From contig NC_057718.1 in the NCBI RefSeq assembly GCF_004010195.1, forward strand, positions 85,698,283-85,762,282: a stretch of 64,000 bases of DNA, in the 5' to 3' direction. Shown piece after piece: positions 9,020 through 63,945 of the stretch. Source of the stretch: Chiloscyllium plagiosum (lineage: Eukaryota). Within the stretch, counting starts at the first letter, position 1. Each line of letters opens with the position of its first letter. A program made the translations under genes and the position numbers. The notes beneath the pieces are model-generated. The model had not been told where the DNA came from, ran no database searches, and saw nothing but the letters and a program-made list of their open reading frames with translations.

Positions 9020-9540
9020 GAAGTGTGATGGCATATTCTCCATTTGCCTGAGTGAGAGCAGCTCCAAAAACACTCAAGAAAATTTGTGCCCATTGAGGAA
9101 AGTGTATCCCACTTGATTGGCACCAGATTCATAAACATTTATTCCTTCCCCCGCCAATACTCAGTTGTGTGCCAGCTACAAGATGTGCCGCAAAAATTGA
9201 CCGTAGCTCCAGAGTCTGCATTCCTGATGAAGGGCTTTTGCCAGAAACGTCAATTTTCCTGCTCCTTCGGATACTGCCTGACCTGCTGTGCTTTTCCAGC
9301 ACCACTGTAATCTAGACTCTGATTTCCAGCATCTGCATTCCTCATGTCTGCCTAGGTGATTTTAACCATCCAAACTCTTGACCACTTTCATCCAGAAGGA
9401 AAAGGGTAGCAGATACAGGGGAACAACATCACCTGCAAGTTCCCCTCTATACCACTCACTATCCTGACTTGGAAACATATTGTTATTCTTTCAGTGTCAT
9501 TGGGTCAAAATCCTGGAATTGCTTCCCTACTGCACTGTGA
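9020..9540 (+). mobile_element. 3' fragment of L2/Crack-like LINE, interrupted by a Penelope pLTR insert
   Basis: agtgtgatggcatattctcc...gcagctccaaaaacactcaagaa...cacctgcaagttcccctc...ctgacttggaaacatattg...gggtcaaaatcctggaat, the same family as 45722-46035. Confidence 0.75.
9219..9367 (+). mobile_element. Penelope pseudo-LTR fragment (family A) with hammerhead motif
   Basis: CTGATGA at 9224-9230, helix II gggc-tttt-gcca, GAAACGTC at 9244-9251, then the family-A tgctgcctgacctgctgtgcttttccagc tract. Confidence 0.85.
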
Positions 9541-10237
9541 ATAAATAAAAAAAAAGGTCAGCTTTGCTGGGCTCAAAATGGCTGAGGCTGATCACATGAT
9601 CATATTTGCAGAAACTTCTGAACCCCCTGCATTGTATAGACATTCTTGTTCAAGTTCACACAAAGCGACTGGAGATGAACCATCTGCTTCCAAACAGCTC
9701 TTGACAAAAGAATCTGTTACGTTATGTAAAATGGACACTAATGCTTTTATAGTTATCTCATTCCACTTCAATGAAAATCCGGACAAGGGAGGTAAAGCTA
9801 CAATGTTAGCTTCATAACTTTCCAATTAACTCACTGAAATGGGACATTAGCATTAGAAATCCCTGTCCTTGACACATGACTGAAATCAGAGCTTTTTGGA
9901 TTGCCTAAATATACATATCTGGGATTTTAAGTCAGTTGCTGTTTGACCTTCAGTGGGAGAGCAGGACACCAGGTTGAGTGTGAGCCTGCCTCAGACCTCA
10001 CATCTCTACCTCCAAATTCCTGGCTGGAGTGAAGTCTATGCCTTTGTAAGAAGGAACACCAGATGACCCTGCTCACTAAGGGAACTGTTAGTGGACACAG
10101 ATGTCTGGGAAGTTTTGCTTAATGTGAAATGAATTTCAGCTGGTCTTGATTTACCAAAACTTGTAAATAAAAAATAATTTGCGAACAAATTTGTTATCTA
10201 TTTCCTCTCCTGTCTTGTCTTCCTTAATTTCTTAACT

Positions 10238-10383
10238 GTTGACCATTGCTAGGGTGCTTTTGGGAGCTTTGCCTGTTTACTCAATCCTAGATCCTGCAAT
10301 ACTGGAATGTAGGATGCAACTGTGAAGCTGAGTAAGGAACTGTTCCTGAATGTTGTATGTTTACATCTGAAATCTGTCCTGCA
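10238..10383. repeat. Unclassified ~145-bp dispersed repeat, copy 2
   Basis: Direct repeat of 8445-8590. Confidence 0.9.
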
Positions 10384-10738
10384 GTGTGTGTGTATGTGTA
10401 TGTGTGCATGTGCTTACGTGTGTGCCTGTGTAAACAGTTTTCCTACATTTTAAATGTTTTCCTACTCAATCCTATCTTTGATTTTAGTTTACGTTTCTTT
10501 GCTGCAGGTTTGTTTGAAAAATTAGAATCCGAGAGACAGTTTGGGAGAGCAGCCTTTGGCCTACCTCTGAGGATGATGGGGGTAAGAAAGGAAAGGAGTA
10601 AAAAACTCATAGTCTCGGGGAAAACAATGATTCAAATTTATTTCCATTCTATTTTTGCTCATGACATTTGACAGCATTTTCCAAACCTGTGACCATTATT
10701 ACCTAAGAGGGCAGTGACAATGGATGCATGGGAACACC

Positions 10739-14415: not shown

Positions 14416-14504
14416 CGAGTGTCCCAGAGGTATTTCTGTTATAGCCCTGTGAAGCAAACTCTTGTATCACTATTTTATGTATCATGATAAATCAGCTTTC
14501 TTCA

Positions 14505-17084: not shown

Positions 17085-17600
17085 AAGGGATGGAAGGTTG
17101 GCCCAATCAAGATTTTAAAATATTAAAAGGATCTTTGCAGTAAGATATGGAGGAGCTACTTTCTCTGGTTGGGAATACAAAACAAGGGGGCGTACCTTTA
17201 CAACCATATTGCTCAATAAAAGGCACATTTTGTCAAAGCTTTTTGTCTTGCACTCATCAGGACCATTTGCAAGAAACACCATTGTGAAGGGAAAACAACA
17301 TTTATACTATCTTGTCTAGAGGAGAGCAAAAAGAAAAATTTCAGCAAAATGTTTCTTTTTTCCAGCAATACTCAAGTTCTGTATTTAAAATTATAGCTAG
17401 ACTATTCAGGAACAACATCAGAAAACCATTCTTCACATAAAGCTAGTGGGAATAAAACTTGCTTCCCCAAATGACTGAAGTTGCTGGATCAATTGAAAAT
17501 TACAAGTCTGGGTTGGATCAAGTTGAGGTGCAGAACAAGCTCTGTTGAAGTGAACAAGTTTGACAAGCTGAATGGCCTATTCCTGATCATAATGTTCCCA
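17085..17600 (+). mobile_element. Degenerate CR1 3' fragment with Penelope-derived insert
   Basis: ttttaaaatattaaaagga...aaaacaaggggg...aaaattatagctagactattcagg...gctgaatggcctattcctg. Confidence 0.6.
17201..17383 (-). mobile_element. Short PLE-like insert (family C) with decayed hammerhead motif and partial inverted arm
   Basis: Reverse complement of 17232-17263 is gtc-CTGATGA-gtgcaagac-aaaa-agct-tt-gac. Segment 17345-17372 is a diverged inverted copy of 17207-17233. Confidence 0.6.
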
Positions 17601-17694
17601 TGATACTATGAAACATGACTCATTGTGCCAGTTTATCATAAATAGCTCTTTTATAAAGAGCTCTGTGCGTGCTTGAAATTGCCGAGTCCTGATC

Positions 17695-19483: not shown

Positions 19484-20722
19484 GGGTGGCACGGCGGCTC
19501 AGTGGTTAGCATTGCTGCCTCACAGTGCCAGGAACTCGGTTCAATTCCAGTCTCAGGCTATCTGTGTGGAGTTTGCACATTCTCCCCGAGTCTACATTTT
19601 CCTCTGGCTGCTCCGGTTTCCTCCACAGTCCAAAGATGTGTAGGTTAGGGTGAATTGGCCATGCTAAATTACCCCTAGTGCCTAGGGATGTGCAGGTTAG
19701 GGTGAATTGACCATGCTAAATTGTCCCGTAGTGCCCAGGGATGTGTAGGTTAGGGTGAATTGGCCATGCTAAATTACCCCTAGTGCCTAGGGATGTGCAG
19801 GTTAGGGCGAATTGACCATGCTAAGTTGTCTTGTAGTGCCCTGGGACATGGAGGTTAGGTGGATTGGCCATGCTAAATTGTCCCGTAGTGTTCAGGGATG
19901 TGCAGGTTAGGGTGAATTGGCCACACTAAGTTGTCCCGTAGTGTTCAGGAATGTGCAGGTTAGGGTGAATTGGCCATGCTAAATTGTCCCGTAGTGTTCA
20001 GGGACATGTAGGTTAGGGTGAATTGGCCATGCTAAATTATCCCGTAGTGCCCAGGGATGTGCAGGTTAGGGTGAATTGGCCATGCTAAATTGTCCCGTAG
20101 TGTTCAGGGACATGCAGGTTAGGGTGACTTGACCATGCTAAATTGTCCCGTAGTGCCCAGGGATGTGCAGGTTAGGGTGAATTGGCCATGCTAAATTGTC
20201 CCATAGTGCCCAGGGATGTGCAGGTTAGGGTGAATTGGCCATGCTCAATTGTCCCGTAGTGCCCAGGGATGTGCAGGTTAGGGTGAATTGGCCATGCTAA
20301 GTTGTCCCGTAGTGCCCTGGGACATGCAGGTTAGGTAGATTGGCCATGCTAAATTGTCCCGTAGTGTTCAGGGATGTGCAGGTTATGGTGAATTGGCCAT
20401 GCTAAATTGTCCCATAGTGTTCAGGGACGTGCAGGTTAGGGTGAATTAGTCATGCTAAATTGTCCCGTAGTGCCCAGGGATGTGCAGATTAGGGTGAATT
20501 GGCCATGCTAAATTGTCCCATAGTGTTCAGGGTGTGTAGGTTCGGGTGAATTGGCCATGCTAAATTGCCTGTAGTATTCAGGGTGTGTAGGTTGGGTGCA
20601 TTAGTCAGCTGTAAATGTAGGATGATAGGTTCGGGGAAAGGGTCTGGATGGGTTACTTCTCAGAGGGTCTGTGTGGGCTTGTTGGGCTAAATAGCCTGTT
20701 TCAACACTGTAGGGATTCTATG
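19484..20722 (+). mobile_element. HE1 V-SINE with internal minisatellite expansion
   Basis: Head gggtggcacggcggctcagtggttagc, V-domain, tandem array, then tail ...cactgtagggattctatg. Confidence 0.93.
19636..20583 (+). repeat. Minisatellite, 18 units of 52-53 bp
   Basis: Unit consensus atgtgcaggttagggtgaattggccatgctaaattgtcccgtagtg(cc/tt)caggg, counted by eye. Confidence 0.95.
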
Positions 20723-25101: not shown

Positions 25102-25109
25102 ATTTAATT

Positions 25110-29605: not shown

Positions 29606-29872
29606 ACCATTCCTGATGCCCTTTTAAAACCCTTTTATAAAAACTGGGCTGTCCACTCCCAGTTGACTGGCCATGCCAGTCGTATTATAGTGCTGGCAGG
29701 ATATATTTCAGCAGGGGGGCAGGCTGGGGACTGGAGTCTCTTGAGTTTTGGACAGGGGGTTAGGCTCTGTCCATCCTCTTCCAAACAAAGATCTACCTAT
29801 TGGGGTCACACAAAATCCAGCCCATTATCTTTAGTCCCTGTTGCAATCTCCATGGTCATGTCTCAGTTTTTC

Positions 29873-29906
29873 TCCTGAAGAAGGGCCTGTGCCCGAAACG
29901 TCGAAT
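29873..29906 (+). ncRNA. Minimal type-I hammerhead ribozyme motif (core intact)
   Basis: CUGAAGA-A-GGGC-cugu-GCCC-GAAA-CG-UC, predicted cleavage after C29902. Helix I is only about 2 bp in this copy. Confidence 0.75.
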
Positions 29907-29963
29907 CTCCTGTTCCCTGGATGCTGCCTGACCTGCTGTGCTGTTCCAGCAATAAAGTTTCAA
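29875..29963 (+). mobile_element. 89-bp Penelope-pLTR mini-insert beginning at a hammerhead core
   Basis: 13-bp TSD ctcagtttttctc at 29862-29874 and 29964-29976. Confidence 0.9.
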
Positions 29964-32710: not shown

Positions 32711-33933
32711 CACCCTTGCACCCTCTGGATTCTTCAATTGAGCTTCATTTTGCATTCATTTAATCTGCTCATGAGTATGAAATGGAGTTAGCTCTCAAGA
32801 GAGAGTTGATGATCTACCTTGCCCCACAGTCAATCTCAAAGTATGAGATGCTGCAAATATGTTCCAAAATGGAAAGGGAAGGACTCATTCAAATCCATTG
32901 CCACAATCATTTTCCCAGCTCTTGGCCTTACAGTGTTTGTCCTGGCTTGAATTTGTTGTGGGGGGGGGGGGGGGCTATAAAAGCTGACACACTTCAATCT
33001 CCTCCTCAGGCAGGTCCTCAGGATCGGAAATGACTGGGTCTCCACTCAAGTTTGATGGGTTCTGAGATAGTCCAAATTTTCTCAGATTCTGTCAGTAATT
33101 TGTCTGAGGTGGTGTACAGTATTGCAGCAAGGGAGATGGTTGAACGGGTTGGTGTACTGATAGAGCCCCAGTCACTGAAATGGAGCCAGTGATGGCTCCA
33201 TTGGTGAGGATCAGGACTTGCAAGTCATTGTGGACTTGACAGAGGATGGAAATAATATCTGAGGGCAACCAAACTTCAGGAGGTTAGAAATCACACAACA
33301 TCAGATTATAGGCCAACAGGTCTATTTGGAAGCCACCCTTGCACCCTCTGGATTCTTCAATTGAGCTTCATTTTGCATTCATTTAATCTGCTCATGAGTA
33401 TGAAATGGAGTTAGCTCTCAAGAGAGAGTTGATGATCTACCTTGCCCCACAGTCAATCTCAAAGTATGAGACGCTGCAAATATGCTCCAAAATGAAAAGG
33501 GAAGGACTCATTCAAATCCATTGCCACAATCATTTTCCCAGCTCTTGGCCGTACAGTGTTTGTCCTGGCTTGAATTTGTTTTGGGGGGGGGGCAATAAAA
33601 GCTGACACACTTCAATCTCCTCCTCAGGCAGGTCCTCAGGATCGAAGATGACTGGGTCTCCACTCAAGTTTGATGGGTTCTGAGATAGTCCAAATTTTCT
33701 CAGATTCTATCAGTAATTTGTCTGAGGTGCTGTACAGTATTGCAGCAAGGGAGATGGTTGAACGGGTTGGTGTACTGATAGAGCCCCAGTCACTGAAATG
33801 GAGCCAGTGATCAGGACTTGCAAGTCACTGTGGACTTGACAGAGGATGGAAATAACATCTGAGGGCAACCAAACTTCAGGAGGTTAGAAATCACACAACA
33901 TCAGATTATAGTCCAACAGGTCTATTTGGAAGC
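32711..33933. repeat. Tandem segmental duplication, 2 copies (32711-33333; 33334-33933)
   Basis: Near-identical copies that differ by scattered substitutions, G-run length and an 18-bp indel. Confidence 0.95.
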
Positions 33934-34369
33934 ATTGACTTTTGGAGCACTGCTCCTTCATCAGGTGGTTGTGAAGTATAGGATTGTAAGACACGGAATT
34001 TATAGCAAAAGATTACAGTGTCATACAGTGATATATTGTACAAACCTGGATTGTTAAGTCTTTCATCTTTTAGAATGAATTTATTAGTATGTAAATCCTA
34101 GAACTTCTTTTAAGTCACCTTCTCAAGATAATTTAAGGTTTTATAACAAAACATGATATCTCAGCTCAGAGACTGCATTAAAGGTGTGAGGTCAGATTCT
34201 GACTGTATCCCAATCTTACTGGTTCTATTTCCAAAGTGGAATTTATAAAATATTACATGGATTGACTGACTGCATTGACTACCTGCAGATTGTGCATCTT
34301 TGGAGCAAAATAAAATGTGTCTGTAAATATAATTCTGCAAATACAAATTCACCCATTGACTTATATGTG

Positions 34370-34506
34370 TGTTTGTGTGCAAGTGAGAGAGAGAGAGAGA
34401 GAGAGAGACAGTGAGTGCGTGCATGTGAGTGTGCGCGTGTGAGTGTACATGAGAGAGTGTGCGCGTGTGTGTATACACGCGCATGCAAGAGTGTCTATGT
34501 GTGTGT
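34370..34506. repeat. (GA)n / (GT)n-rich microsatellite in the Penelope 3'UTR
   Basis: gagagagagagagagagagagaga at ~34385-34408, flanked by gtgtgc-type repeats. Confidence 0.9.
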
Positions 34507-35965
34507 ACAGTGCAGTCGGGTCACCTGTAGTGTGAGCCCAAGGTCCCAGTTGAGGCCATCCCCATTGGTACTGAACTTGGCTATCAGTCTCTGCTCGGCC
34601 ACTTTGTGTTGTTGCCTATCTCCACCTTGGAGGATGGTCACCCAAAGACCCGAGGCTGAATATCCCTGACTGCTGAAGTGCTGCCCGAATGGGAGAGAAC
34701 ACTCCTGCCTGTTGATTGTTGCGTGGTGTCCATTCACCTGTTGTCGTAGCTTCTGCTTGGTCCCGCCAATATACAAAGCCTCAGGGCATCCTTGCATGCA
34801 GCGTACGAGATAGACAACGTTGGCTGAGTCACATGTATAGTTGCTGCTTACACAGTGGGTGGTGCCCCCACGGATAATGGGGGTATCCATGTCAACACTC
34901 TGACACGTCTTGCAGTGGCTGCCATGACAGGGTTGTACGGTGCTGTGGTTGATGTTGTCCTGAAGGCTGGATAGTTTACTGCGAAAAATCGTCTGTTTAA
35001 GGTTTGGAGATTGTTTAAAGGCAAGAAGTAGAGATGTAGGGAAGGTCTTGGCGAGATGTTCATCCTCATCAATCATGTGTTGCAGGCTGTGAAGAACATG
35101 GTGTAATTTTTGGCTCCCGGGAAGTACTGGACAACAAAGGGTACCATATCGGTTACAACCCGTATCTGTCTCCTGAGGAGGTCATTATGGTTTCTTGCTG
35201 TGGCACGTCGGAATGGGTGGTTGGTGAGTTGAACATCGTACCCCGATCTTGTGAGAGCATCCTTGAACACCTTCAGTTGTCCATCACGTTCCTCTTCATC
35301 TGAACAGATCCTGTGTATGCATAAGACTTGTCTGTAGGGATGGCTGTTTTAATATGTATAGGGTAGAAGCTAGAGAAGTGTAGCATTGTGAGGTTATCCA
35401 TGGATTTGTGGTAGAGTGAGGTGCTGCGGTGCCCATCCTTGATGGAGATACATGTGTCCAAGAATGAGACAGATACTAAAGATTAGTCCATGGTGAGTTT
35501 GATGGTGGGATGAAACTCGTTGATATCACTGTGTAGTTTAATCAGTCACTCCTCGTCATAGGTCCAGAGGAAGAAAATGTCGTCAATGTACCTGGTGTAT
35601 AGTGTTGGTTGGAGGTCCTGCGTAGATACGAAGTCTTGTTTGAGCCTGTGCATGAAAGTGTTGGCATATTGGGGGGCAAATTTGTTCCCCATTGCTGTTC
35701 GGTGTGTCTGGATGAAGAACTGGTTGTCAAAGGTGAAAATGTTGTGGTTGAGGATGAAGTGGATAAGTTGTATGACAATGCTTGGAGATTGGCAATTGAT
35801 GGTATTGAGTACTGTGGCTGTTGCCACGATGCCATCATTGTGGGGAATGCTGGTGTAGAGTGCTGAAACGTCTATTATGATAAGTGACGTTTTCGGCTCA
35901 ACCAGTCTGTAGGTGCTGAGTTTCTGTAAGAAATCTATAGTATCACGACAGAAGTTGGGAATCCC
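34495..35965 (-). pseudogene. Penelope RT / GIY-YIG endonuclease ORF, frameshifted
   Basis: Motifs are spread across several frames (ORFs 35546..35827, 35273..35461, 35073..35270, 34495..35076). Confidence 0.9.
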
Positions 35966-36047
35966 TTGTACATGTAAATATCAATCACTGCATGACATTG
36001 TAATCTTTTGCTCTAAATTTGGGTCTTGTGATCTTATACTCCACAAC

Positions 36048-36082
36048 TATCTGATGAAGGAGCTGTGCTCTGAAAGTTAGTG
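36048..36082 (+). ncRNA. Hammerhead motif, family B (partly decayed)
   Basis: tat-CTGATGA-a-ggagc-tgt-gctct-GAAA-gt-ta-gtg. The mirror copy at 33933-33967(-) has GAAA changed to AAAA. Confidence 0.65.
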
Positions 36083-37199
36083 CTTCCAAATCAACCTTTT
36101 GTACTATAACCAGGTGTTGTGTGATTTCTAACTTTGTCCATCCCAGTCCAGCACCGGCTTCTCCATATCAAACCTTGAGGAGGATAGTCTATAAGTCAAA
36201 GATTTGCATGCGAATAAGGAAGGCCACGTACAGCAGTGACGATTCTGGTCTGATAATGTGAAGTCCTTGTGGCAGGTAGATATTTCACACTCTATTCCTC
36301 ACTGAGCACCTTGGGTGAATCACCTCCAATTGATGGAACTCCCTCATCTCCACCTCCTCCCTCTTCCAGCCCCTTGTTACACTCTGTGCAACCTCTGTCA
36401 TGCTGTGTTCTAAGGGGGAGTGCTGAGACTAATGTACCCATGTCTGGGAGCAATTGGTCTGTACAGGAGCCTGAAATCACAAAAAGAAAATCAATATCTG
36501 CCATGCCATTTCCTATAGAATTCTGCAACTTAGAATGACTAGAAGAAGCACTAAACCCATGTAGAATTGAAGCAACAGCCAGAAGAGGTTTACCAGCAAG
36601 TAACTTGCCGGAGATTTCTTTAAATATCTCTGGCAGTTGACCTTGAGAGATGGCGATCACAGTTAAACAAATATTCACTTCATGAGTACTAACACTCTCA
36701 CCAAAGTGGTGCTCAGAGCAGGGCACTTTTGGTGTTTGTGTCTTTGGTGCCTTTTTGTATCTCAAACAGCACCATTTGTACCCAAATACTGGGCATTTCA
36801 CCTCACATTTGCTCCCCAAATCTGTACAACCTGACGTTTTACATTCCTCAACAATGTAGCCCTATCAACTGTTTTGTTGATTTTTATTAATCCTTGAGTG
36901 AAAACGTTCTCTTTTGCTAGGAAAGCTCTCATTGGAAAATGGAAGGGATAAGCTTATCTCCCAGAGCATGGATCAATAGCACAGTATTGTTGTAGACAGG
37001 CTGATTCAGTTTGTTGGCAGGAAGAAGAGATACAGACTTGAAAGAACACCATGACCTTTTCATTCCTGAGTTCTCTCATACAAACAATTTGATGACATGA
37101 TTTTACTCTGAATTACAGCACTGGAAAGTTAAGTAAACTGAAAGGAGATGTTTGTTGAGCATTTTAAAAGAACTGCCTGCTCTTTTAAGAGGGCAATAA

Positions 37200-37322
37200 T
37201 GAGGACTGCAGTTGCTGGAGATCAGAGACAAGATTAGAGTGGTGCTGGAAAAGCACAGCAGGTCAGGCAACATCTGTGGAGCAGGAAAATCGATGTTTTG
37301 GGCAAGAGCCCTTCATCAGGAA
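37200..37322 (-). mobile_element. Penelope pLTR mini-insert (family A), decayed hammerhead
   Basis: Reverse complement is ttc-CTGATGA-a-gggc-tctt-gccc-aaaa-ca-tc-gatt...cctgacctgctgtgcttttccagcaccactctaatcttg. Confidence 0.85.
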
Positions 37323-41304: not shown

Positions 41305-41491
41305 TTCTTGATGCGGAGGAACCGGTGTTGGACTGGGGTGGACATAATTAAATTACATAACATAACACATTACATAACACCAGATTATACTCCAACAGGT
41401 TTATTTGGAAGCACTAGCTTTCAGAGCGATGCTCCTTCATCAGGAGCCTGTTAGACAAACCTGTTAGACAAAACAGGTGATTTTTAACTAC
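41305..41491 (-). mobile_element. Penelope pLTR mini-insert (family B) with hammerhead and short inverted arm
   Basis: 7-bp TSD gatccta at 41298-41304 and 41492-41498. Homologous to 36050-36170. Confidence 0.85.
41411..41446 (-). ncRNA. Minimal type-I hammerhead motif, family B (core intact)
   Basis: Reverse complement is c-CUGAUGA-A-GGAGC-auc-GCUCU-GAAA-GC-UA-gugc. Confidence 0.72.
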
Positions 41492-43340: not shown

Positions 43341-44713
43341 ATGTAATTTCCTTTCTGCTCAAATTCTGAACATCGAGCATAGCATGGTTCCACAAAGAAC
43401 AATGTGACAATAACAGTGGTTGTTGACTGTGGGAGATATATTGACCAGGCAATTGGGGAGAACTTCCTTGTTCTCCAAGGGGGGGAATGATCTCCTTCAG
43501 TTTCTGTTCCCAAATGCATTTTGGGGGAAAATGACTGACTATTCATGTGGCAGGTCCTTCAGAAGATTCTGGTTGACATTAGTGAAAGCACTACAAGAGA
43601 GGTATAATTGCTGCAAACAACTTGTATTATCATGAGGTCATCTCGCATTAGTTAACAATGGGCAAATTATACCCAAAATAGACACTACAGGGCAGGAGTA
43701 CTCATTTATGCAGTGCCTTTCACATTAAAAAATAGAACAGGGTCTTACTAAATAAAGTATAATACTAAGCCACATACTGAGGTATTAGGCACGGTGACCG
43801 AAAACTTATTCAAACAGGTTTAATTAACAATGAGAGAGGTTTCAAGAGAAAATTCCAGATCTTAAGAGTGAGCAAAGCCATCATTGCTGGATCAACAAAA
43901 CTGGGGATGGAGAAATGGCTAGAATTGGAAAAAATACTGGGTTCTCAGGGTGTTTTAGGGCTGAATGAGGTTATAATGACAGAGCGGTCATAATGTGGTG
44001 GAGGCAGAAATCAGTCAGCACCACGATCATGAAATGGGCTCATGATAAATTGTCAGCCCTTTTTACCATCTGTACAATGTTCTTTTACAGTAAACCAACT
44101 ATAGGTGGGAACCAATTTCATCTCACCCTCCCCCATCCTTCAACCTTTACTTTGCATCCTCTTGCTTGGTCTGAGTCAAAGACTTTTACAATAAACAATT
44201 ATAAATTTCAGCTAGTGGATGTACTGGACTAAACTTGACTTACTGTGGAGTGCACTCTATAGGGTATTAAAACATAATTCCAGCAGTTATTTTCCTGCCG
44301 GGATTCTGGCCTGACTGATTGTCAGTCAAACTTCCAGAAATGTATATAAATGTGAGGTTCTGCATTTTGGAAAAGCAAATCAGAGCAGGACCTATACACT
44401 TAATGATAAGGTCCTTGGGAGTGTTGCTGAACAAAGAGACACTGGAGTGCAGGTTTATAGCTCCTTGAAAGTAGAGTCACAGGTAGATAGGATAGTGAAG
44501 AAGGCATTTGGTCTACTTTCCTTTATTGGTTAGAGTATTGAGCACAGGAGTTGGAAGGTTATGTTGTGGCTGTACAGGATGTTGGCTAGTCCATTTTAGA
44601 ATTTTGTGTGCAATTCTGGTCTCCTTCTGGTCTCCATTAGAAGGATATTTTGAAACTTGAAAGAATTCAGAAAAGATTTACAAGAATGTTGCCAGGTTTA
44701 GATGATTTGAGCT

Positions 44714-45000
44714 GAAAATGTGTTGCTGGAAAAGCACAGCAGGTCAGGCAGCATCCAGGGGACAGGAGAATCGACGTTTCGGGCATAAGCCCTTCTTCAG
44801 GAACTTTGTAGAGGGAGAAAGAGAGCTTCTTCAAGGAAGGCATCCTTGTAAGAGGATTCGCAGTAGGTTGAAATCTTTGAGGAGAAAGTGAGGTCTGCAG
44901 ATGCTGGAGATCAGAGCTGAAAATGTGTTGCTGGAAAAGCACAGCAGGTCAGGCAGCATCCAAGGAACAGGAGAATCGACATTTCAGGCATAAGCCCTTC
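44714..45000 (-). mobile_element. 287-bp Penelope-derived tandem insert (family A, 205-bp period)
   Basis: 16-bp TSD ttagatgatttgagct at 44698-44713 and 45001-45016. Two pLTR copies start at 44712 and 44917. Confidence 0.92.
44768..44803 (-). ncRNA. Minimal type-I hammerhead ribozyme motif (core intact)
   Basis: Reverse complement is uuc-CUGAAGA-A-GGGC-uuau-GCCC-GAAA-CG-UC-gauuc, predicted cleavage between 44773 and 44772. Confidence 0.78.
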
Positions 45001-45721
45001 TTAGATGATTTGAGCTATAGGGAGAGGTTGAATAGGCTGGGGCTGTTTTCCCTAGAGCATCGGAGGCTGAGGGGTGACCATACAGAGGTCTATAAAATCA
45101 TGATGGGCATAGATAGGGTAAATAGATAAAGTTTTTTCTCTGGGGTGGGCGAGTCCAGAACTAGAGGCCATAGGTTTAGCATGAGGGGGGAAAGATATGA
45201 AAGGGACCTAAGGGGCAACTTTTTCATACAGAGGGTGGTGTATGTATGGAATGACCTGCCAGAGCAAGTGGTGGAGGCTGGTACAATTTCAGCATTTAAA
45301 ACTCATCTGGATGGGTATATGAATAGGAAGGGTTTGAGGGATATGGGTCACGTGCTGGCAACTGGGTCTAGATTAGATTGGGGTATCTGGTTAGCATAGA
45401 CGAGTTGGATTGAAGGGTCTGTTTCCATGCTGTATTTCTCTATGACTTTATGGATGTGCAGCTGGCCATTGAAGACCAGGTGGGAGGTGGCAGAATAAGA
45501 ATGGAGGATGCATATTATTTGGAGATACTGAGAGAGATGAGTCAATGAAATGAAGGTCAACCCTAAGGGAAAAGAGGGGAATCTATCAGAGATTGCAGTA
45601 AGAGGGTTGATCCCTGGGAAAAGACATGTGTTGAACCCTATGGGGATCGTGGGAGCCTCATTTCAGGATTTGAGGTCTTGTGATGAAGGCGGAGGTTTTC
45701 TCTGGCAGGTACCTGAATAAT

Positions 45722-47269: not shown

Positions 47270-48240
47270 GCAAAGAGAGAGTGAGAAGTGACTAGCAGCT
47301 AGCTTTAGAGAGAATCCAAATATAATTATGAACATATAAATATTGAAAGGATTGTAAGAGTAGTGGGGCAATTAATAGGGACCAAAAAGGAATCCTCATA
47401 TGAAGACCAAAGGCACGGCTGAAATACTAAATATGTATTTTGTAGCTACCTTTTCCAAGGAAGGAGATGTTACCTAAGCCACAGTGAAAGAGAAATTGTT
47501 GATTTACTATATGGGCTTAAAAATAATAACGCTGAAAAATGTGTTGCTGGAAAAGCGCAGCAGGTCAGGCAGCATCCAAGGAGCAGGAGAATCGATGTTT
47601 CGGGTATAAGGCTCATGCCCGAAATGTCGATTCTCCTGCTCCTTGGATGCTACCTGACCTGCTGCGTTTTTCCAGCAACACATTTTTCAGCTCTGATCTC
47701 CAGCATCTGCAGTCCTCATTTTCTCCTTCAAAATAATAATGAAGACATTCTAGAAAAAGTATTTCAAGTTAAGAAGTTGCTAGTACTGGATGAGATGCAT
47801 CCAAGGGCACTAAAATTATTAGTTAGAAATGCCAGAGGTATTTGCCATAATCCTTCAATTCCCCTTCAGTGTCAGAGTTGTGTCAGAGGCATGGAGAACT
47901 GTAAATGTCACACTACCATCCAAAATAAAATATTAGGATAAATCTAGAAACTGCACATTAGTCACTTTAACTCCGATGATCAGAAAACTTATAGAGATGA
48001 TAATTCTGAACAAAATTGACAAGAGATTTGATGGAAGTATTGAAACTCTTTTTAATGTAGGTGAGTGATTAGTTCTGGAATATAAACCTGAGAATGCAGG
48101 TGGGAAAACCAATTGGATGCTCAAGTAAAAGTGACTGAAGAGGAAAATAATTGCAAGGTTATAGAGAAGGGACAGAAGAGTGGGATGAGTGGAATTTGTC
48201 ATGGATATGACGGTCCAAATGGCCTCCTTCTGTGTTGTCC
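47270..48240 (+). mobile_element. Degenerate CR1 fragments with fold-back insert
   Basis: ggatgagatgcatccaaggg (D.MHPR), ggagaactgtaaatgtcacact, ctagaaactgcacattagtcactttaac ([12 protein letters not shown]). Confidence 0.65.
47530..47729. mobile_element. Fold-back (palindromic) Penelope-pLTR mini-element, family A
   Basis: Arms 47531-47608 and ~47613-47691 are reverse complements. 10-bp TSD aaaataataa at 47520-47529 and 47730-47739. Confidence 0.92.
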
Positions 48241-50904: not shown

Positions 50905-51660
50905 AAATCCAGAAGGCTAATGGAATGCTATCGTTTATCATAAGAGGCATTGAACAGCAAAGTGAGCATGTCATACTCCAGTTGTAAGGGACCTTGGTAA
51001 GACTGCAACTCAAGGACTGTGGTCTCTATATGTAAGGAAGCATATAGATGCATTGGAGGTGGTTCAGAGGAGGTTTACTAGAATGACATCTGGAATGAGA
51101 GTGCTGTTTTATGACGATAGATTGGACAAACTGTGCTTGTTTTCACAGGAGTTTAGCAGAGTGAGGGGTCACTTCATTTAAATGCAGAAGATCCTGAACA
51201 GCCTTGCCAAGGTACATGTGAAAAGATGTGGATCTGCCCAGAACTAGGGGGATCACTGTTTTGAAATTAGGCGTCACCCTTTTAGGACAGAAATAAGGAA
51301 TATTATATCTTCTCACACTTGGACTTTGGAACTCTGCCTCAGAAAGCAGTGGCAGTGAGGTCATTAAATATTTTTAAGGCAGAGGCAGATAGGTTTTCAG
51401 GCGAAAGTGAAGGCTACAAATGTTGGAGATCAGAGTCAAGATTAGAATGGTGCTGGAAAAACACAGCAGGTCAGGCAGCATCCGAGGAGCAGGAAAATCG
51501 ACATCTCAGTCAAAAGCCCTTCATCAGGATAGATTTTTGTCAGGAAGAGGAGTTGGGATGGGGTTTGGGTGGGACCCGAGATCTGGATGTGGAATTTGAA
51601 ATACTAACAGATTGGCCCTTGGTGGGGTCGGAGCAGAATGGACTATTTCCATTTCTATTT
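50905..51660 (+). mobile_element. Degenerate CR1 3' portion
   Basis: gatgcattggaggtggttcagaggaggtttactagaatg...tggaactctgcctcagaaagcagtgg. Confidence 0.8.
51398..51527 (-). mobile_element. Penelope pLTR mini-insert (family A), decayed hammerhead
   Basis: TSD gataggtttt at 51388-51397 and gatagatttt at 51528-51537. Reverse complement begins c-CTGATGA-a-gggc-tttt-gact-gaga-tgtc. Confidence 0.85.
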
Positions 51661-53113: not shown

Positions 53114-53424
53114 TTTTTTTCACATTTATTTTTAGATTAGATTACTTACAATGTGGAAACAGGCCCTTCGGCCCAACAAGTCCACACCTACCCACCGAAG
53201 CGCAACCCACCTATTCCCCTCTTTACCTAACACTACGGGCAATTTAGCACGGCCAATTCACCTGACCTGCACATCTTTGGACTGTGGGAGGAAACCGGAG
53301 CACCCGGAGGAAACCCACGCAGACACGGGGAGAATGTGCAAACTCCACACAGTCGAGAATTGAACCCGGGTCTCTGGCGCTGTGAGGCAGCAGTGCTAAC
53401 CACTGTGCCACCTTGCCGCCCACA
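53114..53424 (-). mobile_element. HE1 V-SINE, young, nested in the long CR1
   Basis: Full head, V-domain and tail. 6-bp TSD atacct at 53108-53113 and 53425-53430. Confidence 0.95.
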
Positions 53425-55856
53425 ATACCTATCACCCCTCAATTTAAAACTATGCCCCCTTGTGCTCGTCGTCTCTATACTTGGAAAAAGGCTCTCCCTG
53501 TCCACCCTATCTAATCCTCTGATTATCTTATATGTCTCTATTAAGTCACCTCTCACCCTGCTTCTCTCTAATGGAAACAGCCTCAAATCCCTCAGCCTTT
53601 CCTCGTAAGACCTTCCCTCCATACCAGGCAACATCCTGGTAAATCTCCTCTGCACCCTTTCCAAAGCTTCCACGTCCTTCTTATAATGCGGTGACCAGAA
53701 CTGTACACAATACTCCAAGTGCGGCCGACTAGAGTTTTGTACAGCTGTAGCATAACCTCATGGTTCCGGTACTCGATCCCTCTATTAATAAAAGCTAAAG
53801 CACTGTAAGCCTTCTTAACGACCCTGTCAACCTGGGTGGCAACTTTCAAGGATCTGTGTACCTGGACACCGAGATCTCTCTGCTCATCTACACTACCAAG
53901 AATCTTACCATTAGCCCAGTACTTTGCATTCCGGTTACTCCGACCAAAGTGAATCACCTCACACTTGTCCGCATTAAACTCCATTTTCCACCTCTCAGCC
54001 CAGCTCTGTAGCTTATCTATGTCTCTCTGTAACTTACAACATCCTTTTGTCACTATCCACAACTCCACCGACCTTAGTGTCGTCTGCAAATTTACTAACC
54101 CACCCTTCTATGTCCTCATCCAGGTCGTTGATAAAAATGACGAGCAGCAGTGGGCCCAAAACTAATCCTTGTGGTACACCACTGGTAACTGAACTCCAGG
54201 ATGTACATTTCCCATCAACCACCACCCTCTGTCTTCTTTCAGCAAGCCAATTACTGATCCAAACTGCTATATCTCCCACAATCCCATTCCTCTGCATTTT
54301 GTACAATAGCCTACTATGGGGAACCTTATCGAATGCCTTGCTGAAATCCATATACACCACATCAACCAGTTTACTCTCATCTACCTGTTTGGTCACCTTC
54401 TCAAAGAACTCAATAAGGTTTGTGAGGCACAACCTACCCTTCACAAAACCATGCTGACTATCCCTAATCAAATTATTCTTTTCTAGATGATTATAAATTC
54501 TATCTCTTATAACCTTTTCCAACACTTTACCAACAACTGAAGTAAGGCTCACTGGTCTATAATTACCAGGATTGTCTCTACTCCCCTTCTTGAACAGGGG
54601 AACCATATTTGCTATCCTCCAGTCTTCTGGCACTACTGCTGTAGACCTGTAGACAATGACGATTTAAAGATCAATGCCAAAGGCTCGGCAATCTCCTCCC
54701 TGGCTTCCCAGAGGATCCTAGGATAAATCCCATCCGGCCAGGGGACCTATCTATTTTCACACTCTGCAGGATTTCTAATACCTCCTCCTTGTGAACCTCA
54801 ATCACACCTGGTCTAGTAGCCTGTATCTCAGTAATCTCCTCGACAACATTGTCGTTTTCTTGATTGAATACTGTTGAAAAATATTCATTTAGTATTTCCC
54901 CTATCTCCTCTGACTCCACACACAACTTCCCACTACTATCCTTGATTGGCCCTAATCTTACTCTAATCATTCGTTTATTCCTTAAATACCTATAGAAAGC
55001 CTTAGTGTTTACCCTGATCCTATCCGCCAACAACTTCTCATGTCTCCTCCTGGCTCTTCTGAGCTCTATTTTAGGTCTTTCCTGGCTAACTTGTCACCCT
55101 CAAGCGCCCTAACTGAGCCTTCACATCTCATCCTAACATAAGCCTTCTTTTTCCTTGTGACCAGAGATTCCACTTCCTTCATAAACCACGGCTCCCGCGC
55201 TCTACAGCTTCCTCCCTGCCTGACAGGTACATACCTATCTAGGACACACAGCAGTTTTTCCTTGAATAAGCTCCACATTTCTAATGTGCCCATCCCCTGC
55301 AGTTTCCTTCTCCATCCTATGCTTCTTAAATCTTGCCTAATCGCTTCGTAATTTCCTTTCCCCCAGCTGTAACTCTTGCCCAGTGGTATACACCTATCCC
55401 TTTCTATCACTAAAGTAAACATAACAGAATTGTGATCGCTATCACCAAAGTGCTCACCTATTTCCAAGTCTAACAATTGGCCGGGCTCATTACCCAATAC
55501 CAAATCTAATGTGGCTTCGCTCCTTGTTGGCCAAATCTAATGTGGCTTCGCTCCTTGTTGGCCTGTCTACATTCCTGTGTCAGGAATCTCTCCTGCACAC
55601 ACTGGACAAAAACTGACCCATCTATAGTACTCATACTATAGTGTTCCCAGTCAATATTTGGAAAGTTGAAGTCCCCCATGACAACTACCCTGTCTCACTC
55701 CTATCGAGAATCACCTTTGCTATCCTTTCCTCTACATCTCTGGAACTATTTGGCGGTCTATAGAGAACTCCTAACAGGGTGACCTCTCCTTTCCTGATTC
55801 TAACTTCAGCCCATACTACCTCAGTTTACGAGTCCCCAAACATCCTTTCTGCAACT

Positions 55857-55925
55857 NNNNNNNNNNNNNNNNNNNNNNNNNNNNNNNNNNNNNNNNNNNN
55901 NNNNNNNNNNNNNNNNNNNNNNNNN
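55857..55925. other. Assembly gap
   Basis: Run of N covering the ORF1/ORF2 junction. Confidence 1.
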
Positions 55926-55929
55926 CCCC

Positions 55930-56582
55930 AGAAAAAGCCCCAATTATCCAAGAATCCAAAACCCTCCCTCCTGCACCATCCCTGTAGCCTTGGGGCTGCT
56001 CCCCCTCCCCCTTAAGGATCCCAAAAACACGATCAGACCCATCACGAACCCTGGCACCTGGAAAGCAACACACCAACCGTGAGTCTCTCTCGTCCCCACA
56101 GAACCTCCTATCTGTCCCCCTAACTATGGAGTCCCCAATGATTACTGCTCTGCTCCTCTTCCCCTTTCCCTTCTGAGCAGCAGGGACAGACTCTGTGCCA
56201 GAGCCCTGTACCCACTGCTTTCCCCTGGTAAGTCCACCCCCTCAACAGTATCCAAAACAGTATACTTATTGTTGAGGGGAATGACCACAGGGGATCCCTG
56301 CACTGCCTGCCGGTTCCCTTTCCGTCCCCTGACTGTAAGCCATTTGCCTTTTTCTTGTACCTTAGGAGTGACTACCTCCCTGTAACTCCTCTCAATAACC
56401 CCCTCTGCCTCCTGAATGATCCGAAGTTCATCCAGCTCCAGCTCCAGTTCCCTAACGCGGTTTTCGAGGAGCTGGAGTTGGGTGCACTTCCCACAGATGT
56501 AGTCAGCAGGGTCACTAGTGGTGACCCTTACCTCCCAAATTCTGCAGGAGGAACATTCAACTGCCCTCACCTCCATTCCCAC
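55930..56582 (-). pseudogene. CR1 ORF1 (CxxC..CxxC zinc finger, coiled coil, start of esterase)
   Basis: MEVRAVECSSCRIWE...YICGKCTQLQLLENRVRELELELDELR, then in another frame VCCFPGARVRD..DRVFGILKGEGEQP. Confidence 0.9.
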
Positions 56583-56898
56583 TCTTCTAAATTCCCAAAA
56601 AGATTGATGAAAAAATAAGGAATAAAAGAAAATCTCGTTACCTTACCAATCTGGCGCACAGGTCATTTTTTTGGTTAGAGGAGGAGGATGGGTGGGAGAT
56701 ACTACCCGAGTAGTGTTTCGTGTAATGCCACCACACAAACATATGACTTCCCAGAAGTCCTTTGCTCCTCCCTCGCACCTCTCGGTAAATGGAGGCCCGA
56801 CTCCCGAGGTAAGTCCCTTTTAATGTGGGAAAACTCACCCTTCCCGGCAGCCCTCGCTTCACCTCTCCTTTTCTCCTCGCCGCTCTGGCAAAATGTTA

Positions 56899-60574: not shown

Positions 60575-60672
60575 AAAAACAGAAGTTGCTGGAAACGCCT
60601 CAGCAGGTCTGGCAGCAGCTGTGTAGAGAAATGAAAGTTAATGCTTTGGGTTCAGTGACCTTTGCTCAGGAG
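60575..60672 (-). mobile_element. Degenerate Penelope pLTR fragment (family A-related)
   Basis: gaagttgctggaaa...cagcaggtctggcagca...gttaatgctttgggttcagtgacctttgctcagga, with an eroded hammerhead. Confidence 0.55.
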
Positions 60673-60935
60673 TGTTTTTCAAATCCTTTTTGAGATGTGG
60701 CATTTATTATCGATCCTTACTTGCTAATATTGGTGTCATAGAGTCATCCTTCACATACCTAATGGGCTTTACACAAAATAACATAAAATGTTTTAATTAA
60801 TTATGTGGTTACAGGACAGGAACAGGCAATTCAAGCAAACAGGCCTTTGCTCTGTTTATGCTTTGCCTCTGCCTCCCCACATTCTTCCTCATGTCTCCCT
60901 ATTAGTGAATCCTTATACGTCTTTCCCCCTTGTAT

Positions 60936-62032
60936 AATAAGACCATAAGACATAGGAGTGGAGGTAAGGCCATTTGGCCCATCGCGTCCACTCCGCCATT
61001 CAATCATGGCTGATGAGCATTTCAACTCCACTTACCCGCATTCTTCCCGTAGCCCTTAATTCCTTGTGACATCAAGAATTTATCAATCTCTGCCTTGAAG
61101 ACATTTAGCGTCCCGGCCTCCACTGCACTCTGTGGCAATGAATTCCACAGGCCCACCACTCTCTGACTGAAGAAATGTCTCCGCATTTCTGTCCTGAATT
61201 GGCCCCCTCTAATTCTAAGGCTGTGTTCATGGGTCCTAGTCTCCTCGCCTAACGGAAACAATTTCCTAGCGTCCACCCTTTCCAAGCCATGTATTATCTT
61301 GTAAGTTTCTATTAGATCTCCCCTTCTAAACTCCAATGAATACAATCCCAGGATCCTCAGCTGTTCCTCGTATGTTAGACCAACCATTCCAGGGATCATC
61401 CGTGTGAATCTCCGCTGGACACGCTCCAGTGCCAGTATGTCCTTCCTGAGGTGTGGGGACCAAAACTGGACACAGTACTCCAAATGGGGCCTAACCAGAG
61501 CTTTACAAAGTCTCAGTAGCACAACGGTGTTTTTATATTCCAACCTTCTTGAGATAATTGACAACATTACATTTGCTATCTTAATCACGGATTCAACCTG
61601 CATGTTTACCTTTAGAGAATTCTCGACTAGCACTCCCAGATCCCTTTGGACTTTGGCTTTATGAATTTTCTCACCGTTTAGAAAGTAGTCCATGCTCCTA
61701 TTCTTTTTTCTAAAGTGCAAGACCTCGCATTTGCTCACATTGAATTCCATCAGCCATTTCCTGGACCACTCTCCCAAATTGTCTAGATCCTTCTGCAACC
61801 TCCCCACTTCCTCAGTACTACCTGCCTGTCCACCTAACTTCGTATCTTCGGCAATCTTCACTAGAATGCCCCCAGTCCCTTCATCCAGATCATTAATATA
61901 TAACGTGAACAGCTGTGGCCTCAACACTGAACCCTGCAGGACACCACTTGTCACCGGCTGCCATTCCAAAAAAGAACTTTTTATCCCAACTCTCTGCCTT
62001 CTGTCAGACAGCCAATTCTCAATCCATACCAG
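60936..62032 (-). mobile_element. 5'-truncated CR1 with 315-aa open RT C-terminal frame
   Basis: ORF 61022..61969 has VTSGVLQGSVLRPQLFTLYINDL...[14 protein letters not shown]...WNSLPQ. Tail taagaccataagacatag. Confidence 0.95.
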
Positions 62033-62964
62033 CTTAGCCTCCTTTTAACTTCATCTTCCTGCATTCAAGAATTGAACTTGGCCTTTGAATCCTTAATAAT
62101 GAAAGTTAGAATTCTAAAAGATCTGCAGATCCACGTTCAAAAATCAATTTGCTTCAACATTAAGTGGCAGATTTATTACATTTGCTCTGATGTGTGACCT
62201 CCAAAAAGGAATTGCATATATATCTGGATTAGCTGGATCTTCGTTATGAACTGGCTTGATAGACTTTCAAAAAACGGAATGTGTGGAAGAATAATTGTCA
62301 GGGTTCTATTGTAAAATCAAATGCAACTTACACAAACCTGAACATAAGCAATAACGACTAATGTATATATTGAACAGGTTTTGGAACTGATTCTAAACCA
62401 ATACACTATATATACAATTTAGACTCTAATATTCTGGATATACATGAGGCAAATATGGGTTAATAGACAAACTGTGGCTGAACACTCCTCAGACTGCACT
62501 TTAAATGGCTAATATTTCAAGGCAGATCCTACCCAAACATATTGGTCACAAATCACCAATAAAGTTCTGTCTCATTTGCAAGGGATTCCAAGTCTTCAGT
62601 TGGAAGATCCATCCTTGGAATGTTTTGATGGTTTGATCTCTTATTTCAAGCCTCAGTTCTCCAAGACTCCTGAGTCTACTCCCAAAAGTCTAAATACCAA
62701 CAAAATGTCAGCTTTTATTCAACATCTGCTTTATCAGGTGTCTCTAAGTTTCTTTAAACTCTAATCTTTCTCTATCTACACCAAGCAAATACAGCTTGTG
62801 GGCTTCCTTCATTGCCCTCTCAATTGTACTGAACTTTCAATGGCTTCCAGGGATTTGTTTTAGCCCGATCTTTCTATATGGCAAGGTGGCACAATTCCCT
62901 TTGACTTCTCTTGAGCTTTAATTGCATAGTCGCTAAAACTCTTATGCTTAGTAGGCACTTTGCA

Positions 62965-63945
62965 TCCTCACTTCCCACACCTCGACCTTTGAGCTCCACC
63001 CCTTCAATTGCAACAAAAACTGAACCTTCCTGGTCCTCACCTTCCACCCCACCATCCTCCAGATCCAACGTATCATCCTCCACCATTTCTGCCACCTACA
63101 AACAGATTCTACCACCAGAAATATATTTCCCTCCCCATTCCTCTCTGCATTCCACAGAGACCATTCCCTCTATGACTCCCTTGTCCAAGCCCACCACCAA
63201 CCCACCCACCACTCCTGGCACCTTCCCCTGCCACTGCAAGAGGTGTAAAGCCTGCGTCCACACCTCCCACCTCACCTCCATCTAAGGCCCCAAAGGATCC
63301 AAAGGATCCTTCCATATCCAGCAGAGATTTTCCTGCACCTCCAAACACCTCATCTACTGTGTCCATGACTCTTGAGGTGGTCTCTTCTACATTAGGGAGA
63401 CAGGATGCCAACTTGTGGAATGTTTCAGAGAACATCTCTGGGATACATGCACTAAACATCCCCACCGCCTTGTGGCCGAACACTTCAACACCCTCTCCTA
63501 CTCCGCCAAGGACATGCAAGTCCTGGGCCTCCTCCACAACCAAATTCTAGCCACCCGATGCCTGGAGGAAGAGAGCCTCAGATTCCGCCTTGGGACACAT
63601 GGGATCAATGTTGATTTCACTAGTTTCCTCATCTCCCTTCCCCCACCTTATCACAGATCCAACTCTCAAACTTGGCACCGCCCTCTTGAATTGTCCTACC
63701 TGTCCATCTTCCTTCCCACCTATCTGCTCCACTCTCCATTCTGACGTATCACCATCACCCCCACCTTCATCGACCTATTGTATTTCCAGCCGCCTTTCGC
63801 CCAACCCCATCCCCCCTCCCATTTATCTCTCAGCCCCCTTGGGCCTCCCCACATTCATGATGAAGAGCTTATGCTCAAAATGTCGACTCACCTGCTCCTC
63901 AGATGCTGCCTGACCTACTGTGCTTTTCCAGCACCACACGTTTGG
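62965..63945 (+). mobile_element. Penelope-like element 3' part (family A): GIY-YIG remnant plus pLTR with decayed hammerhead
   Basis: PGTFPCHCKRCKAC; FSCTSKHLIYCV..LFYIRETG; ECFREHL...VAEHFN...DMQVLGLLH. At 63853-63888: ttc-atgatga-a-gagc-ttat-gctc-aaaa-tgtc-gac. Confidence 0.9.

Follow-up and report, generated by a model that had tools for sequence, protein, structure and literature searches.

Minimal hammerhead motifs in 64 kb of Chiloscyllium plagiosum DNA as probable insertion products of Neptune-type Penelope-like elements

The hammerhead-like motifs in the 64-kb stretch of Chiloscyllium plagiosum DNA analysed here (in the following, the window) are, with a probability of roughly 85%, minimal type I hammerheads of the pseudo-LTRs (pLTRs) of Neptune-type Penelope-like elements (PLEs), and the copies in the window are mostly decayed insertion products. 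Two motif families end PLE remnants with coding sequence, and the short copies of these families carry target-site duplications, end at two clustered sites and have their 5' ends at the front of the hammerhead core.

Hammerhead motifs and their structure

Each of the 13 positions listed in an earlier note holds a hammerhead-like motif or its remnant, far above chance, whereby C3 of the copy placed at 37320 actually lies at 37319. The 13 motifs trace to 10 insertions. For their evaluation we used a strict descriptor consisting of CUGANGA, an optional extra base, a helix II of 3-8 bp closed by G10.1-Y11.1, GAAA, an exact palindrome and UH. Three of the 13 motifs passed, namely 29875(+), 44800(-) and 41443(-), which keep core, helix II and palindrome, and no match occurred in any of 40 shuffled versions of the window. 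The other ten depart from the motif form proposed before as written. The same applies to the family sequences: the one given for family A, GAAACGUC, fits three of nine A copies and differs from the other six, and the one given for family B, GAAAGCUA, exactly fits one of three B copies and differs from the other two.

CUGANGA, GAAA and NUH are all complete in 9224, 29875, 44800, 36051 and 41443 (5 of 13 copies), and the majority letters of the A and of the B alignment each yield complete core boxes. G12 is changed to A at 37319, 63857, 33964 and 17260, with C3 also changed to A at 63857; A14 is changed to G at 51527 and C11.1 to A at 9224, and CUGANGA is partly or wholly missing from the 45005 copy and both arms at 47600. 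That a palindrome replaces helix III was borne out, in exact form in five of the 13 copies (9224, 29875, 44800, 41443 and 17260); in the remaining ones it is altered. An extra A between A9 and 10.1 is present in seven of seven A copies and three of three B copies and is missing from family C. The closing pair G10.1-C11.1 is G-C in four, G-U in two and broken in one of seven A copies, and G-C in one and G-U in two of three B copies. Helix I comprises 2 bp and then a mismatch in family A, and 3 bp, a mismatch and 2 bp in the pLTR copies of family B; in solo copies its upstream strand is supplied by the target DNA.

An Rfam scan of the window (E up to 5) gave nine matches, none of them to a hammerhead family, the best ones being hairpin matches on the palindrome at 47.6 kb. 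Since the motifs are helix-III-less, this silence is expected and yields no independent support. For most copies, the hammerhead shape did not appear in minimum-energy folds of single copies and dimers, and the folds were left out of the evidence on activity. A metagenome scan with the family A motif pattern returned no locus.

PLE remnants and short copies

Families A and B are tied to PLEs, because in both a motif stands at the end of a GIY-YIG remnant that is 5'-truncated and has a Neptune-type Cys linker. The family A element (62966..63945, +) consists of a broken linker and GIY-YIG frame (62970-63618), the 3' UTR, the motif (63857-63884; C3 and G12 changed, one compensated helix II pair) and a short tail, and is flanked by a 9-bp target-site duplication (62957-62965 / 63946-63954) with a score reached by 4 of 382 random pairs. 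Its frame is 61-64% identical to shark protein P0010 and is confined to the endonuclease part; both RT and GIY-YIG are present in relatives of 800-900 aa. The family B element (33884..36171, -) is likewise 5'-truncated, has a degenerate target-site duplication of ~18 bp and bears an inverted pLTR (35973-36171) at its 5' end, in which the tail is 40 nt longer. Its broken frame (34534..35971, -), interrupted by frameshifts and stops, covers RT, Cys linker and GIY-YIG (RVT_1 E 4.7e-07) and is 65-72% identical to residues 157-638 of shark protein P0001; in the relative P0002, GIY-YIG gave E 7.6e-04, which is below the cut-off. The motif of the 3' pLTR (33936..33964, -) is altered at G12, the palindrome and 1.1, and the one in the inverted pLTR (36051..36079, +) has an intact core and a wobble palindrome. 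Both the A motif at 63857 and the B motif at 33964 are sense to, and downstream of, the GIY-YIG remnants. C-x4-C-xx-C linkers are present in both remnants, and a CX2-5CxxC linker precedes the endonuclease in 14 of 14 examined relatives of at least 600 aa. The attachment to GIY-YIG/RT remnants thus confirms the PLE origin claimed for helix-III-less hammerheads as far as A and B are concerned. Their sources would be at least two Neptune-type PLEs, the clade being assigned from a linker motif that occurs also in Nematis (PMC8557442). No intact full-length element lies inside the window. A tandem duplication at 32711-33933 was considered as a product of a ribozyme-cut transcript and rejected, since it is far younger than the insertion (2.2% vs 15% divergence).

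The assertion of at least three Penelope-linked families is not supported in the case of family C, which is a single motif (17232..17263, -) with a 3-bp helix I, a 2-bp helix II, a 6-nt palindrome and G12 changed to A. The window contains it only once, and 155 relatives used as queries revealed no PLE protein remnant near 17260. The motif passes a relaxed descriptor that was devised after the motif had been seen and that also matches in 4 of 300 shuffles. A metagenome scan with 19 bases of this motif led to three loci, which are put down to chance because they are similar only in pattern and lack an Rfam match.

One short copy of family A is an 89-bp unit at 29875..29963 (+), which begins exactly at C3, contains an intact motif (29875-29902) and is framed by a 13-bp target-site duplication (29862-29874 / 29964-29976). 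The copy at 9221..9341 (+; motif C3-C17 9224-9251, core bases intact, G10.1-C11.1 pair broken) is accompanied by an 11-bp exact repeat (9215-9225 / 9332-9342), which is either a terminal redundancy or a target-site duplication showing microhomology at each junction. A partial dimer with a 205-nt period (44714..45000, -) is inserted in a CR1-type LINE, with LINE frame on either side and a 16-bp target-site duplication (44698-44713 / 45001-45016); it comprises, in this order, a truncated motif (44978-45000), tail, a 72-nt linker (44804-44875), an intact motif (44773-44800) and a short tail. The linker was also considered as the ORF start of a full-length A element; this was not confirmed, as no close full-length relative was found and the N-termini of 14 long relatives are unlike it by eye. 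At 47530..47729 two family A arms, whose ends lie at distances of ~97 and ~137 nt from the inferred C3, are joined head to head inside helix II, with a 10-bp target-site duplication (47520-47529 / 47730-47739). Of 382 random pairs, no more than one reaches the duplication scores at 9224, 29875, 44714-45000 and 47530-47729. In the copy at 37190..37322 (-; motif 37292-37319, G12 and palindrome altered) the flanks show no clear target-site duplication, and at 51395..51529 (-; motif 51500-51527, A14, helix II and palindrome altered) there is a weak possible duplication ending at C3, whose score is equalled by 11% of random pairs. A profile search added an old, diverged A-like copy absent from the earlier list (60578..60672, -; nhmmer E 9.9e-07). 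The family B short copy (41308..41444, -) begins at the core edge; its motif (41415-41443) passes the strict descriptor with a weak helix I, and a search of its flanks for a target-site duplication found none.

Taken together, the short copies have target-site duplications, two end sites 30-40 nt apart, corresponding to the PLE 'tail', and a 5' end at the core front, and no copy in the window begins at the cut site. Copies starting at the core edge instead of the cut site look like transcripts of an uncut RNA whose 5' end is fixed. We found no published description of this boundary pattern. With respect to the 'non-autonomous mini-elements' suggested earlier, the target-site duplications do indicate insertion as short units, but the same module ends the PLE at 62966-63945, so that the short copies may be stumps from the RNA of an autonomous element and not a self-propagating family.

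Conservation, decay and abundance

The covariation of helix II stated in the earlier note is not significant: seven A copies contain one compensated pair (63857), a value reached in 250 of 500 shuffles, and three B copies contain none, whereby the few sequences give the test low power. Loop II is, as claimed, freer than core and stem (7/34 vs 6/131 cells differ, p=0.006). The non-CpG core differs less than the tail (2/74 vs 36/459), although not significantly (p=0.14). Most motif losses fall at CpG sites, and CpG positions of the motif differ in 11/45 cells compared to 6/131 cells of core and stem outside CpG (p=0.0004). RNA reads of the species carry a changed G12 in 371/1829 cases and a changed palindrome G in 396/1931; the 40 of 56 rows listed contain no core or helix II position outside CpG.

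In DNA runs of two species, 74,170 and 68,754 contigs (which are not copy numbers) match family A, in agreement with the expectation that it is very abundant genome-wide. A reading of the density as a ribozyme load is not supported, since 10 of the 13 motifs are broken and the rest are putative ribozymes; a high motif load had already been described for other vertebrates (PMC4209133).

Insertion model, known systems and alternatives

From these positions, attachments, duplications, clustered ends, CpG bias and numbers we infer the following order of steps. In the source elements, judging from the literature, the motif would be under selection and would cleave most likely as a dimer folded via the 4-nt palindrome, with the protein of the element assisting. 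The PLE endonuclease would nick the target, and reverse transcription would begin at one of two sites, ~80-97 or 118-137 nt downstream of C3, and would in most cases halt within a few bases of the core front, leaving 90-135-bp stumps with 9-18-bp target-site duplications. Sometimes an inversion or a template jump would occur, and rarely reverse transcription would continue into the ORF. After insertion, the copies would decay neutrally, CpG first, into mostly dead relics. More tentatively, and with clearly less than even odds, the front edge of the hammerhead is a fixed RNA 5' end, that is the pLTR start site, and the main product a 'strong-stop'-like run-off cDNA on uncut RNA; synthesis would start internally at a tail site of the 5' pLTR and fall off the RNA end 90-135 nt later.

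Minimal PLE hammerheads were described in 2014, with ~4,000 copies in coelacanth and 9,000 in Xenopus (PMC4209133). Like the shark motifs, they have no helix III, a palindrome at 15.2-16.2, an extra base between 9 and 10.1 and a G10.1-C11.1 pair, and they form several families per genome, mostly solo and in thousands of copies. The shark helix II is shorter (4-5 bp vs 7-8 bp in Schistosoma), and helix I of family A has 2 bp, where 4-5 bp would be expected of a PLE minimal hammerhead. The published numbers refer to descriptor-passing motifs, a tally in which 10 of the 13 motifs of the window would fail; the relevant passages of that paper name no shark and give no start point of solo copies. 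Neptune-type EN+ PLEs share with the shark elements RT, CX2-5CxxC linker and GIY-YIG, 5' truncation, an inverted pLTR, an optional 30-40-bp tail and target-site duplications, of 8-10 bp there and 9-18 bp in the shark (Arkhipova 2013, PMC3846280; Craig 2021, PMC8557442), and the inverted pLTR at 35973-36171 and the two 3' ends 30-40 nt apart fit this anatomy (see also PMC11167929). The shark differs in that its commonest product is the 90-135-bp stump with a 5' end at the hammerhead edge. In the Poseidon element PAc of the green anole, RT starts at two internal sites downstream of the hammerhead, which define the tail; it copies mainly uncut RNA, and none of the RNA-seq reads ends at the cut site (Frangieh 2024, PMC11167929), as in the shark model. 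PAc belongs to a different clade, its ORF starts at stem II, and a fixed 5' end at the hammerhead is not reported in the relevant passages of that paper.

Alternatively, with a chance of perhaps one in four, the short A copies form a non-autonomous family (a hammerhead SINE or non-LTR retrozyme) that propagates itself from its own masters via cleaved and circularised RNA and borrowed PLE proteins. Non-LTR retrozymes are non-coding, pLTR-derived units with type I hammerheads, and the 205-nt partial dimer with its 16-bp duplication falls within their range of 51-972 bp (Cervera 2020, PMC7229834; Li 2026, bioRxiv 10.64898/2026.07.22.740005); ones derived from PLE pLTRs are reported in one chondrichthyan (Li 2026). 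Head-to-tail joints (44803 to 44880), seen in 32 contigs of one species and 5 of the other, a multi-copy linker and subfamily variants of high share in loop II and tail point in the same direction. However, retrozymes need at least two units with complete motifs; the upstream motif of the sole dimer in the window is cut within the core and the other copies are solo or inverted. Linker depth is ~1/30 of motif depth, five of six listed linker pieces end at 44804-44808 before reaching the motif, seven of eight previously listed A insertions are non-tandem, none starts at the cut site, and the same module terminates an ORF-bearing PLE at 63857. The stump and retrozyme readings are not exclusive, and a minority of retrozyme-like units may exist.

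It is improbable that the intact copies work as ribozymes within host transcripts (introns, read-through RNA or trans-dimers) and thereby affect host RNA metabolism. The full core in 3 of 13 copies, 3,794 RNA reads of the species on the family A module and a palindrome that in principle permits pairing between copies would suit this reading. But the reads lie on both strands and 96% continue into unlike sequence, as in passenger-like transcription; no pile-up of read starts or ends is listed for the one poly(A) single-cell library, which is a weak test. Decay tracks CpG mutability instead of function, and solo copies have lost the upstream helix I strand to target DNA. Dimer cleavage is the subject of a paper by Lunse et al. 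(cited through PMC6765202); published single minimal motifs were uncleaved and dimers weakly cleaved (PMC4209133), eight of nine frog dimers showed no cleavage, and the anole motif required its protein (PMC11167929). Despite the weak helix I, the non-significant covariation, the missing Rfam match and single-copy folds without hammerhead shape, the motifs are very improbable as chance look-alikes in an ordinary repeat that never were ribozymes, given that the strict descriptor finds nothing in 40 shuffles and that two otherwise dissimilar families keep core boxes, the extra base after A9, a G-closed helix II and the palindrome and sit at the published PLE hammerhead location.

As a catalogue entry, the preferred reading as PLE insertion products is of small value, since PLE minimal hammerheads at thousands per genome were already known and most copies here are dead. 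More useful are the tens of thousands of sharp-ended copies, in which PLE reverse transcription has left a fossil record. If copies start at the core front and almost never at the cut site, the role of the PLE hammerhead becomes testable from genome sequence alone, and the one in vitro PLE study is in line with the predicted uncut template and fixed 5' end of the RNA. If the run-off model is true, it would account for the many solo minimal hammerheads in vertebrates without a non-autonomous master, put inversions and template jumps at one and the same base, and provide genome-scale evidence that ribozyme cleavage removes RNA from transposition and does not prepare it.

State of the motifs and their link to Penelope-like elements

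A hammerhead-like motif or its remnant was present at every position proposed in the earlier note, which gives 13 motifs when both arms of the 47.6-kb palindrome are counted; 10 insertions account for them. Three of the 13 (29875 on the plus strand, 44800 and 41443 on the minus strand) pass a strict minimal-hammerhead descriptor that had no match in any of 40 dinucleotide-type shuffles. Thus, the motif lies far above chance, yet is mostly broken. The core bases are all retained in 9224, where the G10.1-C11.1 pair is lost (hammerhead numbering), and in 36051, where the palindrome contains a wobble. G12 is changed to A in 37319, 63857, 33964, and 17260, A14 is altered in 51527, and the first box is partly or wholly missing in 45005 and in both 47.6-kb arms. 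An Rfam search of the window matched none of the 13 motifs, and a profile search added an old family A-like copy at 60578-60672.

Of the Penelope-linked families that had been claimed, at least three in number, A and B are attached to remnants of Penelope-like elements (PLEs), and C could not be upheld. Family B belongs to a 5'-truncated PLE on the minus strand (33884-36171) with a reverse transcriptase domain (RVT_1), a C-x4-C-xx-C linker, and a GIY-YIG region, the frame of which is 65-72% identical to a shark protein. Family A motif 63857 lies at the end of a remnant of 980 bp (62966-63945) that is bounded by a 9-bp duplication. Its linker and GIY-YIG frame is broken; it shows 61-64% identity to a second shark protein and is matched by 760 proteins (E up to 0.001). 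All 14 examined relatives of at least 600 amino acids have a GIY-YIG-like motif as well as the Cys linker, and 13 have a reverse transcriptase motif; the named relatives come from sharks throughout, in line with the shark host assumed in the earlier note. In the available text of PMC8557442 the Cys linker marks Neptune and Nematis PLEs. Neither a second family C copy in the window nor a PLE remnant near 17260 was found, and this motif meets a relaxed descriptor, written post hoc, that also matches in 4 of 300 shuffles.

Pieces of the family B frame also occur within predicted shark host proteins (P0003 and P0006-P0008; NOXP20-like, PPP1R12A-like, and a 7TM protein), representing either exonisation or gene-model artefacts. 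A young tandem duplication (32711-33933, units 2.2% apart) comprises 50 nt of the tail of the pseudo-LTR (pLTR) and about 550 nt of flank. Its 5' end, in motif sense, lies 2 nt past the scissile bond of B motif 33964; since the duplication is much younger than the insertion, this is probably a coincidence.

Overall, the set consists of real, rightly recognised but ordinary PLE hammerhead relics of a type already known, with two families shown, and most copies are dead. The available text of PMC4209133 (2014) already describes the motif, its location, several families, and high solo copy numbers (~4,000 in coelacanth, ~9,000 in Xenopus); no account of these families was found in the searched literature on shark or chondrichthyan PLEs and hammerhead ribozymes.

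Variation among copies and genome-wide abundance

Covariation in helix II, as asserted before, was not borne out: family A has one compensated pair (63857) among seven copies, with 250 of 500 shuffles scoring equally high, and family B has none among three copies. Loop II is more variable than the non-CpG core and stem (7/34 vs 6/131, p=0.006), and differences occur in 11 of the 45 cells at CpG positions of the motif (p=0.0004 relative to the same class). The non-CpG core and the tail differ in 2/74 and 36/459 positions (p=0.14), a comparison biased by the use of the cores to find the copies. We infer neutral decay in methylated DNA, over source elements with differing loops. In 63857 the compensated helix II is identical to the four innermost pairs of helix II in family B (63857-63884 vs 33931-33965); together with a weak hit of the family A profile on the B motif (E 0.17), this hints at a possible common ancestry of the two motifs.

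For read matching, four runs were compared at 80% likeness with a single 224-bp permutation of the dimer (44714-45000, minus strand) in which no part is repeated. Matching contigs numbered 74,170 for one DNA run from this species and 68,754 for a second species, which are not copy numbers; they point to tens of thousands of family A copies, in line with the very large genome-wide number anticipated. In DNA run X1, summed depth reached 3-7 million across the motif, against 0.07-0.24 million across the linker. Changes of at least 5% within the motif, among the 40 of 56 listed, affect only its three CpGs, N7, and loop II. RNA run X21 gave 3,794 reads from both strands, 96% of which continue into unlike sequence, with no pile-up of starts or ends; run X22 gave 0 reads. 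The linker of 72 nt that separates the tail from the second motif (44804-44875) is multi-copy in two species, usually joined to the tail and not to the motif; a putative start codon lies in it, and the ORF of the full-length A element may begin there.

Insertion boundaries at the front of the core

Target-site duplications flank copies 9224 (11 bp, exact) and 29875 (13 bp), as well as 44714-45000 (16 bp, within a CR1-type LINE) and 47530-47729 (10 bp), with scores that no more than 1 of 382 random pairs attained. The weak duplication at 51527 is matched by 11% of random pairs, and none was found around 37319 and 41443. An exact 13-bp tandem duplication (41447-41472) lies immediately upstream of the 5' end of the solo B copy. 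Measured from C3, the 3' ends of short copies lie at 81-97 or 118-137 nt, and the arms of each of the two two-armed elements differ in length by 40 nt. This difference is the optional tail, a part of PLE anatomy (PMC3846280 and PMC8557442, in their available text) that in an anole element delimits two internal reverse transcription start sites (PMC11167929, likewise).

The 5' ends of short copies cluster at the core front: exactly at C3 in 29875, inside a microhomology spanning C3 in 9224, and 5 nt inside the core front in 45005, while the sequence shared by 37319, 51527, 44800, and 41443 starts 1-3 nt ahead of C3. The palindrome 47530-47729 turns within helix II; this 200-bp near-perfect palindrome yields sub-threshold scores with microRNA precursor models and is a head-to-head PLE stump rather than a candidate microRNA. 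Only the two ORF-bearing elements extend upstream past the core front. None of the insertions in the window starts at the cut site (N17).

In the reads, loose ends accumulate at 44803, three bases ahead of C3 (897 and 870 contigs, 694 RNA reads), a pile-up qualified by the departure of this locus's linker from the family at the same position. Letter agreement of these ends is low (0.35, 0.34, 0.45), as it is at the far end of the element at 44880 (0.34, 0.33, 0.49); at a subfamily branch point (44755-44756) it is higher (0.59, 0.60, 0.78). The loose letters open with six identical bases in all three runs, so that some copies extend further upstream. The position is also a site of head-to-tail and strand-switch joints. 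Counting in X1 was incomplete; among the 18 of 640 loose-end rows listed none lies at the cut site, and there is no depth step there.

Among other repeats, 18.4 copies of a 53-bp unit (19635-20602) derive from the central part of a SINE-like dispersed repeat present elsewhere in the window. A SINE-like repeat near 53250-53420 interrupts a long broken CR1/L2-type LINE on the minus strand (53233-56642) with reverse transcriptase, endonuclease-like, and upstream ORF-like frames; shorter CR1/L2-type fragments are numerous throughout the window.

Possible origin of the stumps

Source PLEs would maintain a minimal hammerhead in the pLTR, and target-primed reverse transcription from a tail site would yield stumps retaining the whole core, which implies a template that had either escaped cleavage at N17 or been re-ligated. 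For the sharp front edge, the best reading is an RNA 5' end or a strong reverse transcriptase stop, and the bases immediately ahead of C3 look similar to an initiator element. Drosophila Penelope has an internal promoter within the pLTR (PMC2377424, available text), and the minimal hammerhead is described as folding as a dimer via its palindrome, with cleavage that is weak or needs the protein of the element (available text of PMC4209133, PMC11167929, and PMC6765202). The available text of the papers found on pLTR cleavage or transcription start yielded no 5' boundary at the hammerhead, a point on which subscription papers, Repbase, and supplementary figures may bear. We give a fixed RNA 5' end with an uncut template a probability of roughly one in three.

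A self-propagating retrozyme or SINE-like family is a less probable rival and may coexist with PLE stumps. According to the available text of a 2026 preprint (10.64898/2026.07.22.740005), one chondrichthyan carries retrozymes derived from pLTRs, and one of nine frog dimers cleaved. Cleavage relevant to the host is very improbable. That the motifs are chance look-alikes is hardly credible beside the empty shuffles. A fixed 5' end on an uncut template is the reading worth testing.
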